The notes under the pieces are model-generated. The model saw only the letters and a list, made by a program, of their open reading frames with translations. It did not search any database and was not told the origin of the DNA. DNA of 64,000 bases, from positions 1 through 64,000 of the IMG/VR virus record IMGVR_UViG_3300028888_001547; one strand, given 5' to 3'. This stretch comes from a virus. Taxonomy: Duplodnaviria; Caudoviricetes. Positions within the stretch are counted from its first letter, which is position 1, and each line of letters opens with the position of its first letter. The position numbers and the translations under genes were made by a program. Shown here piece by piece: positions 13,848 to 17,795 of the stretch.

Positions 13848-14594
13848 ATGAGCTTAGTACTACCTACACAACCGGTTCCTGCGACCTCGGTAAACCCTCA
13901 GTATTTGATACTGTATGGTTTGCCTAAATCAGGAAAGACCAGCTGCGTAGCTCAGATACCTAACAATTTGATCATAGACCTCGAAGGAGGTTCTACTTTT
14001 ATTGATGCAATGGCTGTACAAGCACGCACGATAGAGGATCTTGGTCAGATTGCTCAGGCTATTCGAGCTAAAAACGACGAAGCTGGTCGTAAATTTTATA
14101 AACATATAACAATTGATAATGCAACTCGTCTAGAGGATATTTGTATGAGTTATGCTTGTACGTTGTATCGTCAAACCGAACTAGGTAAAAACTGGAAAGG
14201 TACAGATGTAACAACGCTTGCTCGTGGTGCTGGATATGGTTACCTACGCACAGCAGTGAAGAAGGTAATTGATATGTTCAAGGATCTCTGTGATGAGTTT
14301 ATTCTTATAGGACATGTCAAAGATAGTATCACAGATAAAGATGGACAAGAAGTCAATGCAAAAGAAATCGACCTTGTTGGAAAACTTGGCAAAATCGTAT
14401 GTGGCATGGCAGATGCCGTTGGATACGTCTATCGTAAGGACAATGAGACTCACATCAGTTTTAAGTCCGGAGGAGATGGAACTATTATGGAGGCGCGTGC
14501 CCGCCATATCGCCGGAAAAGACATCATCATTGCTACAGGTAATGAAGATGGAAGCATAACAACATATTGGGATAAAGTTTATAAACCTGAGTAA
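13848..14594 (+). CDS. P-loop AAA ATPase (AAA_24/Sak4-like recombination or annealing protein)
   Basis: ILYGLPKSGKT, IIDLEGGS, ITIDNAT, ILIGH; lies next to an SSB-like gene. Confidence 0.85.
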   Translation: MSLVLPTQPVPATSVNPQYLILYGLPKSGKTSCVAQIPNNLIIDLEGGSTFIDAMAVQARTIEDLGQIAQAIRAKNDEAGRKFYKHITIDNATRLEDICMSYACTLYRQTELGKNWKGTDVTTLARGAGYGYLRTAVKKVIDMFKDLCDEFILIGHVKDSITDKDGQEVNAKEIDLVGKLGKIVCGMADAVGYVYRKDNETHISFKSGGDGTIMEARARHIAGKDIIIATGNEDGSITTYWDKVYKPE

Positions 14595-14671
14595 TGCATA
14601 TGACTATGAGCAAGGCAAAACGTCTTGCAAAAATACTAAATGTGGATTACAAACAAATATACGCAAGAACT

Positions 14672-15271
14672 ATGTATAGTACAAAAACCGCAACTACAAA
14701 CAATACTGAGTTTAGTAGTTCATATATGCCTGTAGGCATCAACGAGAATGTAACTTTGAAAGAAGTTAACGTAAACAAGACTCCTAATGGTCGTGATTTC
14801 TTGGAGATAATCTTCGAGAATGAGAATGGCCAAACAGCAACAATGACTGAGTGGAAGAACGAGAAGAATATGTGGATCAAGACTGATGAAGACCTTCAGA
14901 AGCGCGATGATCAGCAGTTTGGTCGTATTCTACAAGTTATCGATTGTCTTGGGTTACGACCAGAATTTGAAGGCTCTTCATTCGTTGAAATGATTAACTG
15001 GACTAAGGGTATCCTTGAACAGTATAAGAATATCGACAATAAGAAGCTTCGCCTTAAGGTTGTTTACGACAAGAATGGTTATACGAAAGTATCTAGTCTT
15101 GGTATTTTTGTTGAACCTATGAGTGTAACAGAGTCGCAGATTAAGCTTTGGAAGAATGATCTTCTGGAGCGTCCCGTACAGGCTGACGTTGAGAAGCCTA
15201 ACGACCCGCTCGCTGGTAACAGTGCTCCGGTGACTGCAGACTCTACAGGTGCTGACGACCTGCCTTTCTAA
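14672..15271 (+). CDS. Single-stranded DNA-binding protein-like
   Basis: Acidic-aromatic C-terminal tail ADDLPF; follows the Sak4-like ATPase. Likely start is MYSTKTA at 14672 (the frame is open from 14594). Confidence 0.75.
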   Translation: MYSTKTATTNNTEFSSSYMPVGINENVTLKEVNVNKTPNGRDFLEIIFENENGQTATMTEWKNEKNMWIKTDEDLQKRDDQQFGRILQVIDCLGLRPEFEGSSFVEMINWTKGILEQYKNIDNKKLRLKVVYDKNGYTKVSSLGIFVEPMSVTESQIKLWKNDLLERPVQADVEKPNDPLAGNSAPVTADSTGADDLPF

Positions 15272-16010
15272 TGTGTCCGTTTCTAAGATGGATTTGGAAT
15301 AACACGAAAGATGTTAAACCAATTCCATTTGATGAATCGGACTACACTTGGGAAGTAATAGTCAGTGGTGCTGACGACCAAACATAAGAACCTCAAGAAC
15401 CTCTGAAGCTGTTGAATGGGTCAAAAAGACATTAACCAGATGAAACAGAGTCACACGGATGAGAGTAACGGTCAGTGGTGGAGGACTGATTGGAGTTGAA
15501 AAGGATGCGGAGATAAGTAGATTAAGTTCGAAGTACACGTGTCACAACTGTCCGGTCAGCCCCTAACAAACTTCTTTGTCGTTGTTGCTATGGCGAGAAA
15601 TCCCATAGTAGAATCTCCCTAAAACGGTGGAACTCCTTGAGTGACGATGCAGAGATTTGTCTGGCTTCCTCTTTAGCGGAGGAAGATTGGTGGTTAAACT
15701 CCACCCTCCGAACAAAACCAAAGCGTAAATACATAAGGCGTGAGGACACTAACCAATGATGTGTAGGATAATACCGTACTAAAAACGAGAAACTGGATGA
15801 AACAGGCTGATTACCCTTCATCAACAGCACACCACCTGAATAAGGAAGATATAGTGGAATATGTGGCCACTTTCTCATAAATGTGTAGAGAGTATATAGG
15901 AGATACCTAAGTTGAAATTATAGATGTAAACAACAGCCACGTAAAATACTAGTCCGTGGATAATTGATAACAGTCTATTCTTGCAAGAATTTCGATATGG
16001 TAAAAGCACT
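15272..16010 (+). ncRNA. Candidate structured non-coding RNA region (~0.75 kb)
   Basis: No credible ORF. Stems include GTCCG/CGGAC, TGCTATGG/CCATAGTA, CTTCCTC/GAGGAAG, GGTGG/CCACC and CCACG/CGTGG. Confidence 0.45.
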
Positions 16011-16017
16011 TTCTGGA

Positions 16018-16096
16018 AATCAGTAGTCTAGAGGTTATGACGGTCAACTAAAAGGTAGTTGACGGATTGTGGGGTTCGATTCCCCATCTGATTACA
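16018..16096 (+). ncRNA. tRNA-like element A (non-canonical anticodon arm)
   Basis: AATCAG/CTGATT acceptor-like stem, D-like arm GTC-TAGAGGTTAT-GAC, T arm TGGGG-TTCGATT-CCCCA, and an 8-bp arm GTCAACTA/TAGTTGAC with a 5-nt loop. Confidence 0.65.
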
Positions 16097-16121
16097 ATTA
16101 TTAATTTTAAACATAATCAAT

Positions 16122-16412
16122 ATGGTAAAACTTAAAAGATTAACAGCAGATAAGATTGACCCTTCTGTAAATCAAAAAGGTCAAATTGAGTTTTCATTCA
16201 ACGATTGTTATTTATGTAAAGATCAGATTGGAGGAATTGTCATATTAAACAACACTTTTCCACTAAGTAATAATTGGGCAACAAAAGAAATTGTAAATTA
16301 TTGCATCGATAACAATTTACAATTGTGTACAATATGCACAATCGGAGGAATGCCTAATTTTGATAACATTGTTGTAGACGAAACGGTTAAAGATTTAATA
16401 AAACAACTTTAA
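16122..16412 (+). CDS. Hypothetical AT-rich protein inserted among the tRNA-like elements
   Basis: 96-aa ORF with an ATCAATATG leader like other genes in the block. Confidence 0.7.
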   Translation: MVKLKRLTADKIDPSVNQKGQIEFSFNDCYLCKDQIGGIVILNNTFPLSNNWATKEIVNYCIDNNLQLCTICTIGGMPNFDNIVVDETVKDLIKQL

Positions 16413-16490
16413 TCACTAAAAGTGGAGTAAGGGATTTTAGCACTTTTCGAAGATACCACTATAAAAAATTCCAAGAGAAAGTGTATATAT

Positions 16491-16570
16491 GGAGTCAGTA
16501 AGGTAACGGTAACGTCTATACATAATTAATATTGTATAGAAATGTGAGTTCGAATCTCACCTGGCACCCA
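16491..16570 (+). ncRNA. tRNA-like element B (His-like extra G:C pair, non-canonical anticodon arm)
   Basis: GGAGTCAG/CTGGCACC acceptor (one mismatch), T arm GTGAG-TTCGAAT-CTCAC, and an 8-bp arm TCTATACA/TGTATAGA with a 10-nt AT loop. Confidence 0.65.
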
Positions 16571-16635
16571 ATATATAAAGGGTATTTTGTACGTTTTACC
16601 CCGATCTAGTGTTGGTCCAAGAAACGTACATTATA

Positions 16636-16737
16636 TGGCAAGTAATAAAAAGTCTTATGACGGTGCACACGATTATAAGCAGGAATTAAAGAGTGGCTAT
16701 AGACACTCTGAGCGGTTCGAAACCGACACTTGCCACA
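16636..16737 (+). ncRNA. tRNA-like element C (no clear D stem, long variable-like arm)
   Basis: Perfect TGGCAAGT/ACTTGCCA closing stem, CTTATGA/TTATAAG arm, AGAGTG/CACTCT arm, T loop CGG-TTCGAAA-CCG. Confidence 0.55.
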
Positions 16738-16751
16738 CAAAGCTTAAGCTT

Positions 16752-17795
16752 ATGTATAGTACAAAAACAGCTATCACAATGAGTCTTAGAGACTTGTTGG
16801 AGAAAGTGAGCGACTATGACATCTATGCTTATTATCTAGGCTCATTTAAGCCTGGAAAACTTATGAACAGTCCCTTGCGCCCAGACGATAAGATCCCCAG
16901 TTTCGCTATATTTCCTAGCAAGACTGGAGATCTACTGTTTAAGGATCATGGGACTGGAGAGTCTGGAAACGCTATAAAGTTTATGAAGCTTTATAAAGGA
17001 ATACAGACTCGTGAAGAGCTTGAACGAGAGCTGTTACGCATCGTCCGAAAAATGAATCCGATGAGCGGTGAGGTTAAACCAAAATACGTAAAAACGGTGG
17101 ATTCAGGGCTAACAGATATCGGAATAGTTCGTCAACCATTTACAGAGGTTGATAAAGCCTATTGGAAACAATTCCATATTTCAATAGACACGTTGCGTTA
17201 TTTTAATGTGTTTAGTATTAAGTATTTTCTCTGCAACAGTATTGTCAGAGGAGTATACAAAGAAGATAATCCTATGTATGCATACAAAGTGTTTGATAAG
17301 TTTAAAATATATCGACCACTGGCAAGTAAGTATACTAAATGGAGGACAAACTTAACCGTGCGCCATGTACAAGGTTTAGAACAACTGAATCCTGATGGCG
17401 GAAATCTTTTGATTATTACTAAATCTTTAAAAGACGTAATGTGCCTATATGAAATGGGTTTTAATGCAATATCTTCGAGTAGCGAAACTACTTTCATACC
17501 CGATGACACGCTTCAATCTCTAAGAAGCAAATGGAAGCATATCATCATACTATACGATAGAGATGTTGCTGGTATGAAGAATGCTAGACAATATAGTAAG
17601 CAATATAAGCTAGATGCTATATTTGTTCATAAAAAGTTTAAAGCAAAGGACGTATCCGATGCTGTTAAAGCTAACGGGTTCTTTGCTGTAAAGGATTGGT
17701 TAACTAAAACAGTAGAAAGATATGATAGTAAGTGTAATAGGAGCTTCCCTGATGGGAACATTGATTGGTCTAGTAGGAAGTCTTTATATAGCTAA
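16752..17795 (+). CDS. dnaG: DNA primase (DnaG/TOPRIM type, crAss-like)
   Basis: N-terminal SPLRPDDKIPSF...FKDHGTGESGNAIKF; TOPRIM motifs IITKSLKDVM and ILYDRDVAG; KDVSD. ATG at 16752 (the upstream part of the track ORF overlaps element C). Confidence 0.88.
   Translation: MYSTKTAITMSLRDLLEKVSDYDIYAYYLGSFKPGKLMNSPLRPDDKIPSFAIFPSKTGDLLFKDHGTGESGNAIKFMKLYKGIQTREELERELLRIVRKMNPMSGEVKPKYVKTVDSGLTDIGIVRQPFTEVDKAYWKQFHISIDTLRYFNVFSIKYFLCNSIVRGVYKEDNPMYAYKVFDKFKIYRPLASKYTKWRTNLTVRHVQGLEQLNPDGGNLLIITKSLKDVMCLYEMGFNAISSSSETTFIPDDTLQSLRSKWKHIIILYDRDVAGMKNARQYSKQYKLDAIFVHKKFKAKDVSDAVKANGFFAVKDWLTKTVERYDSKCNRSFPDGNIDWSSRKSLYS

Follow-up and report, generated by a model that had tools for sequence, protein, structure and literature searches.

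tRNA-like elements without an anticodon loop at gene boundaries upstream of the primase gene of a crAss-like phage

INTRODUCTION

In the MALAT1 transcript, which yields mascRNA, in MEN-beta and in the tRNA punctuation of mitochondria, RNase P and RNase Z set the ends of the adjoining long RNAs by their cuts and release a CCA-tailed small RNA. The tRNA cluster of phage T4 contains species 1 and 2 (rnaC and rnaD), non-decoding stable RNAs matured by host tRNA-processing enzymes; these are not, to our knowledge, known to precede conserved mRNA leaders. The t-elements of plant mitochondria were reportedly treated by Hanic-Joyce (1990). According to Forner et al. (2007), mRNA ends are made there by RNase P and RNase Z, which are directed by tRNA-like folds as well as by real tRNAs (PMC1920247). 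The 3′ tRNA-like structures of plant RNA viruses mimic the acceptor/T-arm part of a tRNA and are recognised by RNase P, the CCA-adding enzyme and synthetases (PMC5723415). Here we analyse three tRNA-like RNAs, elements A, B and C, situated upstream of the DNA primase gene in a 64,000-nt stretch (hereafter the window) that makes up positions 1 to 64,000 of the IMG/VR virus record IMGVR_UViG_3300028888_001547. The record is a crAss-like phage contig of 106,598 bp, with stop codon recoding, of gut/rumen type.

The crAss-like phages are among the most abundant gut viruses, and the maturation of their long early and middle transcripts is largely unknown. In a preprint on one crAss-like phage, two loci with low scores are entered as putative pseudogenes of tRNAs, and the existence of suppressors that programs fail to recognise is a matter of speculation (10.64898/2026.08.21.746148). 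Full-text literature searches did not find a paper describing phage elements such as those considered here. A first-pass annotation, made from the letters of the window, had offered three readings of A, B and C: processing signals that cut the operon and free the primase mRNA, decoys for anti-phage tRNA nucleases or synthetases, and non-standard components of TAG recoding.

RESULTS

Elements A, B and C have a tRNA body and no decoding loop

The three tRNA-like RNAs were confirmed on the + strand where they had been annotated (Table 1). In each, an acceptor stem is accompanied by a T arm of GTTCGA type, its loop reading TTCRA (in C the T stem has only three pairs), and none has the 5-bp stem, 7-nt loop, U33 and purine 37 of a canonical anticodon arm. 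The place of this arm is taken in A by a perfect helix with a pentaloop and in B by a perfect helix with a 10-nt loop. A has a D stem with GG in the D loop, and the U8/A14/GG elbow of a tRNA is present, while B is without a real D stem. C is without a D arm; it carries two long arms, the loop of the first having a C at position 37 (GUGCACA), and a weak T arm. Minimum-free-energy folding yields the tRNA-like four-way shape for A and B, and an acceptor stem, two long arms and a T hairpin for C. Since a closed stable helix stands where the anticodon loop would be, the elements cannot decode codons. In one correction to the first-pass annotation, the outermost T:A pair of C turned out not to be conserved; thus C has an ordinary 7-bp acceptor with A as N73.

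Table 1. Coordinates of elements A, B and C, of their helices and of the neighbouring features in the window
Feature	Position	Strand	Evidence or remark
Element A, tRNA-like RNA	16017..16096	+	Rfam tRNA match, minimum-free-energy fold, covariation
A, acceptor stem, 6 bp	16018-23/16088-93	+	AATCAG/CTGATT
A, D stem, 3 bp	16026-28/16039-41	+	
A, closed arm, perfect 8 bp	16043-50/16056-63	+	GTCAACTA/TAGTTGAC
A, pentaloop	16051-55	+	AAAGG
A, T arm	16070-86 (stems 16070-74/16082-86)	+	TGGGG-TTCGATT-CCCCA
A, N73	16094	+	A, then CA
Small-ORF leader	16098..16121	+	TAATTTTAAACATAATCAAT, then ATG; conserved
ORF96, small protein of unknown function	16122..16412	+	ORF list; ATG 27 nt past N73 of A
Element B, tRNA-like RNA	16491..16570	+	Rfam tRNA match, fold, covariation
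B, G-1:C73 pair	16491:16568	+	then CA
B, acceptor stem, 7 pairs	16492-98/16561-67	+	one A.A mismatch
B, arm, perfect 8 bp	16515-22/16533-40	+	
B, arm loop, 10 nt	16523-32	+	
B, T arm	16544-60 (stems 16544-48/16556-60)	+	
Spacer hairpin between B and C	16588..16633	+	stem GTACGTTT/AAACGTAC
Element C, D-armless tRNA-like RNA	16636..16737	+	fold, z = -3.2 vs shuffles, compensatory changes
C, acceptor stem, 7 bp	16637-43/16728-34	+	GGCAAGT/ACTTGCC
C, long arm, 9 bp	16654-62/16670-79	+	bulged
C, long-arm loop, 7 nt	16663-69	+	GTGCACA
C, second arm, 6 bp	16690-95/16704-09 (span 16690-16709)	+	
C, T arm, 3 pairs	16713-15/16723-25	+	plus 2 mismatches around loop TTCGAAA
C, N73	16735	+	then CA ending at 16737, 15 nt before the primase ATG
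Primase leader	16738..16751	+	tandem AAGCTT AAGCTT directly before ATG
DNA primase gene	16752..17795	+	PHROG primase, 1e-30

The elements lie at the border of what tRNA finders recognise. In a 1.8-kb search with the Rfam tRNA model (RF00005; gathering score 29), A scored 28.4 bits (E 0.0025) and B 26.2 bits (E 0.0098), and C was not matched. The alignment of A runs end to end, and in both A and B the excess length is placed in an oversized anticodon loop. The copy of A from one relative just passes the gathering score (29.4 bits). In the ARAGORN check proposed in the first-pass annotation none of the three is called at default settings, where the only call in the window is tRNA-Gln(ttg) at 8014-8085, and all three are recovered at relaxed thresholds only. 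With introns allowed, ARAGORN made many spurious calls, and among its output A appeared as Thr(agt), interrupted by 4 nt, and B as Ile(aat), interrupted by 3 nt; no consistent intron model resulted, and these readings were rejected.

Compensatory changes support selection on the folds

The comparative set consisted of 80 related IMG/VR loci fetched by a primase-protein anchor, together with pattern scans of viral and metagenome collections. An alignment of 15 distinct copies of A has 98.2% of its cells paired, and nine of the 22 pairs are compensated; these are spread across all four helices, with three of them in the unusual 8-bp arm. None of 500 shuffles reached the observed value, and slid controls gave 0-1. 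The pentaloop varies among the copies (AAAGG, CAAGA, CGAGA, AAAGA), and from this free variation it follows that the loop holds no sequence-specific payload. The six copies of B have all their cells (100%) paired; the arm and the T stem each contain two compensated pairs, four in all, and again 0/500 shuffles reached this value.

The extra His-like G:C pair of B, one of the first claims about this locus, is real and invariant in 6/6 copies (G16491:C16568), as in tRNA-His, although the six copies are about 94% alike overall and the invariance therefore adds little. The GUG anticodon of tRNA-His has no counterpart in B, which is without an anticodon loop. A pairing of the 10-nt loop of B with the leader of the small open reading frame (ORF) was considered and dropped: the match is 8 nt long and AU-only, and we treat it as chance, since B and this leader co-occur only in locus L066.

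For C, all three internal differences from the type found in locus L021 keep the pairing (one G-C to A-U and one G.U to G-C change), and the copy in locus L172 has a further U-A to C-G change in the long arm and a G-C to U-A change in the second arm. Few sequences of C are available, hence the shuffle test with three distinct copies is not significant (114/500) and the fold of C is supported less firmly than those of A and B. A metagenome scan with the 18-nt T-arm core of C returned mostly unrelated tRNAs, with true copies of C only in L141, L163, L172 and L201.

Throughout A, B and C, G.U pairs are tolerated on the + strand, which implies that the + strand transcript is what folds. The compensating mutations in relatives show that A, B and C are selected RNAs rather than decaying pseudogenes, and the early argument that perfect pairing speaks against simple decay was borne out by these families. 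Between genomes the elements are 86-97% identical, as compared with 73-83% overall and 48-67% at third codon positions for the adjacent primase gene. On these sequence comparisons the excess of identity would reflect strong constraint, recent exchange, or both.

Element C is not the start of the primase

An ATG at 16635, inside C, is in frame with the primase, and the possibility that C encodes the N-terminus of this protein had to be considered. It was rejected on several grounds. In more than 60 loci the homologous primases match the protein that begins at 16752 from its first residue onward. In L021 and L022 element C is detached, lying about 535 nt upstream of the primase gene and before another ORF. 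The ATG at 16635 reads ACG in L172. The substitutions against L021 are two non-synonymous and one synonymous as codons, and all of them preserve RNA pairing. The comparison of homologues thus places the true start of the primase at ATG 16752, not at 16635, and marks C as an RNA.

tRNA-like elements and ordinary tRNAs alternate in the slot before the primase

We scanned 3 to 3.5 kb upstream of the primase gene in each locus for a T stem with 5/5 pairs and G53...C61, closed by a T[TC]CRA loop. A permissive T-arm/acceptor scanner matched about as often in shuffled sequence, and only the strict version was used. It found 127 T-arm elements upstream of the primase in 86 loci. ARAGORN recognises only about one in four; among those it misses, many form good cloverleaves in which the 'anticodon loop' measures 11-17 nt or the interior is odd.

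Three loci illustrate the oversized loops. The elements at L011 2891-2973, L050 2895-2972 and L051 2894-2972 are otherwise canonical cloverleaves with 12-17-nt 'anticodon loops'; between L050 and L051 a pair of the anticodon stem changes from U-A to C-G, a compensatory change, and the inner helix is re-paired, and ARAGORN calls the L051 element tRNA-Pro(agg).

Ordinary tRNAs occupy the same slot in relatives: Gln and Leu in cr130_1, Leu in cr131_1 ending 23 nt before the primase, and Trp, Lys, Glu or Gln(ctg) elsewhere, with other mimics in other loci. The first-pass annotation had named, as evidence that would count against it, ordinary tRNAs in relatives combined with random degeneration here; the tRNAs are indeed in the slot, the random degeneration is not observed. 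BLAST searches with halves of the elements, aimed at a canonical tRNA from which they might descend, returned members of the families only; a likeness of the D arm of A to tRNA-Glu may be no more than a lead.

The position of the elements is narrowly set. In at least 40 of 76 distinct loci the N73 of a T-arm element lies 10-35 nt before the primase ATG, and in many of the others this place is taken by a weaker T arm or by a GTCAGTGGTGG...CAGCCCCT element that resembles a pseudoknot. In its compact form the latter replaces the tRNA-like element right before conserved leaders in L010, L019, L049 and L040. An ORF starts 10-40 nt downstream of 53% of the T-arm elements, as against 15% of random slot positions. 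N73 (mostly A) is followed by CA in 73% of the non-canonical and 77% of the canonical elements, the background frequency of CA being 5.4%. As non-canonical cloverleaves with a conserved T arm, located at gene boundaries on the transcribed strand, the elements correspond to the description of a t-element.

The leaders are kept while the elements before them change. The primase leader (CACAAAGCTTAAGCTTATG) is common to genomes in which it is preceded by A (L045, L018, L026 and L013), by B (L066), by C (the window and L172) or, in other loci, by real tRNAs. The small-ORF leader (TAATTTTAAACATAATCAATATG) follows A in the window and in L066, other tRNA-like elements in L012, L025 and L016, and the pseudoknot-like element in L040. 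In L066, whose primase gene is 98.5% identical to that of the window, the order is A, an ORF, another mimic, an ORF, B and the primase, with gaps of 6-15 nt; relative to L066 the window has a spacer plus C inserted after B. In L172 the order is A, 4 nt, a 45-codon ORF, a stop plus 1 nt, C, the leader and an ORF.

Two further observations concern the leaders. The leader and first codons of ORF96 are shared with otherwise dissimilar small ORFs in L066, L012, L025, L016 and L040. At the place of the AAGCTT AAGCTT motif (16740-16754 in the window) relatives have GAGCTTATAAGCCATG, GAGCCCATGAGCCATG or GAACTTATAAGTCATG.

On the sequence comparison, the small ORFs behind tRNA-like elements suggest exchangeable small-gene cassettes. 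The AAGCTT-type motif before the primase may be an operator for an RNA-binding regulator.

A separate tRNA(CUA) is the candidate for TAG recoding

The late genes (20034-62000, - strand) form open frames only when TAG counts as a sense codon. Coverage by stop-to-stop ORFs of at least 150 codons then rises from 54% to 93%, with frames of 1,964, 5,088, 744, 708 and 1,463 codons. ARAGORN found no canonical tRNA(CUA) in the whole genome. By aligning the tRNA(cta) genes of relatives (L114 1501-1575, L121 1497-1571) we found a divergent complete tRNA(CUA) at 87475-87551 on the - strand, outside the window and upstream of a dUTPase-like gene, which both ARAGORN and Rfam missed. It has the loop CUCUAAC, an encoded ACCA end, the T loop AGAUGAA instead of TTCRA, and an enlarged D loop.

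The tRNA(cta) genes of L114 and L121 themselves are of a compact and unusual suppressor architecture: the anticodon stem is 6 bp long, the variable region is very short, the D loop is small and CCA is encoded.

A part in TAG recoding was the third of the original proposals; it was considered here together with non-standard decoding, for example with A as an amber suppressor masked by pairing of its CUA to an internal UAG or as a short-intron tRNA. This reading draws on the recoded late genes, on the missing ARAGORN call and on the presence of CTA in 14/15 copies of A. However, this CTA lies inside a helix rather than at 34-36 of a 7-nt loop, and it is not conserved as sequence: pair 35:45 of CTA/TAG is changed from C-G to U-A in L172 (TTA/TAA) and to C.A in L062. 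The covarying C:G is thus a structural pair and not part of an anticodon. Besides, A has neither U33 nor a 7-nt loop, the anticodons proposed by ARAGORN in intron mode are inconsistent, the genome has its dedicated tRNA(CUA), homologous to those of relatives, and A coexists with tRNA(CUA) genes in relatives. The amber suppressor reading of A was rejected.

Genomic context

The + strand genes up to about 20 kb use the standard code and include a Sak4-like annealing protein, the primase, a resolvase and an exonuclease (PHROG assignments). The primase is nearest to those of Suoliviridae/Oafivirinae phages such as cr130_1 and cr131_1 (72% nucleotide identity). In the 1.5-kb stretch from the gene end at 15271 to the primase ATG the ORF list holds a single ORF, of 96 codons (ORF96). 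The PHROG search gave no match to its product; L012 has a nucleotide homologue, 75% identical, behind a different tRNA-like element. For the hairpin in the spacer that separates B from C, the fetched loci gave no homologue. A scan of 14500-17200 for sigma-70 promoters and intrinsic terminators gave nothing above shuffles, with a consensus that does not fit Bacteroidota.

Several other features were seen. Upstream of A, 740 nt (15272-16010) are free of ORFs and contain blocks conserved in relatives; two GTCAGTGGTG hairpins lie in this stretch at ~15361 and ~15471, with a CAGCCCCTAACAA piece that matches them near 15556-15572, and the sequence GGTGG-TTAAACT-CCACC near 15676-15722 may form a minihelix of acceptor plus T arm. 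The opening ~29 nt of the primase gene (MYSTKTAIT; 16751-16779) are repeated at the start of an upstream SSB-like gene (~14667-14700), and the repeat has 89.7% identity over 29 nt against L066 (L066 749-777). Further T-arm/acceptor elements lie elsewhere on the contig, at 77306-77409 (-), 87684-87743 (-), 105334-105413 (+) and 105531-105609 (+), all four without an ARAGORN call at default settings; ARAGORN predicts a permuted tmRNA at 105039-105420.

DISCUSSION

A proposed role as processing marks

We consider it about an even chance (probability near 0.5), judging from the nucleotide comparisons, that A, B and C punctuate the transcript in the manner of t-elements, the messages of ORF96 and the primase being set free when host RNase P and RNase Z cut there. 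The elements would be tRNA-derived structural mimics, transcribed in a single RNA with the replication genes and retaining the features by which the host recognises tRNA ends: the stacked acceptor and T arm, N73 with CA after it and, in A and B, the elbow. RNase P would cut at the 5′ end of each element, and RNase Z, or trimming followed by the CCA-adding enzyme, would act just past N73. The polycistronic transcript would thus be divided and the messages of ORF96 and the primase released with short, defined leaders, presumably to the benefit of their expression; the primase message would start 14-17 nt before its ATG, at the tandem AAGCTT motif. Any tRNA-shaped module could serve at a given boundary, the 3′ end of the module being welded to the leader of the next message. 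Among the original proposals it was that of processing signals that fitted the comparative evidence best (fixed place, conserved leaders, interchange with tRNAs, N73-CA), the cuts themselves being what we infer from this evidence.

Several points weigh against such a role. A phage genome that is compact would place ordinary tRNA genes just as tightly against the next gene, and the distances to the leaders are partly inherited, so that the loci do not count as independent cases. Part of the high identity between genomes could come from recent exchange of cassettes rather than from constraint. One element would suffice before the primase, yet B and C stand there in tandem and relatives have up to five consecutive elements. 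For RNase P and RNase Z the top half of the molecule is enough, yet the lower arms are kept by compensatory change. In addition, the T stem of C is weak and its elbow has no partner in a D loop, which makes its recognition by the enzymes uncertain.

Alternative explanations

Some of these points would be met if the excised RNAs were themselves the product and, as stable mimics of tRNA with a CCA tail, served in trans as decoys, sponges or inhibitors. We regard this explanation as unlikely, though it survives better than the other alternatives. Host proteins with an affinity for the body or the acceptor end of tRNA could be the targets, among them anti-phage toxins that modify or cut tRNA, and tRNA-processing or synthetase enzymes; B might be charged by histidyl-tRNA synthetase (HisRS), and the closed arm would keep the mimics off the ribosome. 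A function in trans would account for the maintenance of the whole molecule by compensatory change, including the lower arm, D stem and elbow, for tandem elements in variable numbers, for the invariant G-1:C73 of B and for the tRNA-like N73-CA end that the mimics share. However, the loop of A varies freely, nucleases that read the anticodon loop would not see A, B or C, and the abutment of the elements on conserved leaders is left unexplained. Somewhat less probable again is a double role, in which the elements would be cutting marks and would also persist as CCA-tailed, possibly aminoacylated (B by HisRS) decoys against host tRNA-directed factors, carried as exchangeable cassettes.

The mosaic structure of the slot invites yet another explanation, in which the elements bound recombination modules, as portable cassettes or landing pads that travel with the small ORFs and persist by spread, not by RNA function. 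Even genomes whose primase genes are 98.5% identical differ in a strongly mosaic way in the slot, the cassette junctions fall exactly at the N73-CA boundary, and element identity is far above that of the flanking genes. Yet the compensatory changes and the one-strand G.U tolerance indicate selection on an RNA fold, and no recombinase or homing endonuclease gene lies beside the elements; we judge this explanation improbable. A reading of the elements as integron attC-like sites was dropped (no integrase, and strand-specific G.U pairs in the folds).

It is very improbable that the elements are dying, functionless tRNA pseudogenes: ordinary tRNAs do stand in the same slot of relatives, and the preprint mentioned above files similar low-scoring crAss-like loci under this name (10.64898/2026.08.21.746148), but the copies are 86-97% identical where neutral sites are near saturation, every helix has compensatory changes and the odd arms are perfect. 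Least credible, given the tRNA(CUA) at 87475-87551 and the covarying CTA, is a part of A, B or C in decoding or TAG recoding.

Implications

If the elements are processing marks, the phage borrows the tRNA-maturation enzymes of its host to punctuate its messages, a practice known from organelles and a few eukaryotic long RNAs and for which we found no description in phages. If they are decoys, crAss-like phages would have a natural 'tRNA scaffold' decoy system directed, for example, against toxins that modify tRNA 3′ ends. For annotation, low-scoring 'pseudo-tRNAs' of phages should not be dismissed as decay; an entire class of RNAs under selection escapes the tRNA finders; a false N-terminal extension of the primase would result from the in-frame ATG inside C; and the real candidate for the amber suppressor of the recoded phage sits elsewhere in its genome. 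The class of elements is widespread and appears to be unpublished for phages. New here are the three families with covariation, the comparison of rates with the primase, the N73-CA signature, the leader swaps and the exclusion of recoding for A.

Comparison with known systems

Canonical tRNAs (RF00005) and the tRNA clusters of phages share with A, B and C the acceptor, the T arm, the N73-CA trailer, the slot and the strand, and with A also the elbow; they differ in that A, B and C have no 5-bp stem with a 7-nt loop, U33 and R37, and in that B has no D stem and C no D arm. The T4 species 1 and 2 are longer and have no sequence relation to the elements. Like the phage elements, mascRNA and the MEN-beta RNA have a tRNA-like fold without a proper anticodon loop, but these systems and mitochondrial punctuation are eukaryotic nuclear or animal mitochondrial and show no sequence relation to the phage elements. 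Some of the tRNA-like structures of plant viruses accept histidine, a parallel to the G-1:C73 of B, whereas as a group they are terminal and pseudoknotted, belong to RNA genomes of eukaryotic hosts and have roles in replication and translation (PMC5723415).

The closest likeness is to the t-elements of plant mitochondria, which also have a non-canonical fold, a conserved T arm of GGTTCRANYCC type and a position near mRNA ends, with real tRNAs serving elsewhere. The t-elements belong to organelle genomes and have mapped transcript ends and cleavage in vitro behind them, whereas the phage elements are known from sequence. The phage elements, for their part, differ in occurring with Bacteroidota-type hosts, in forming several families shuffled between genomes and in having a lower arm that is actively maintained.

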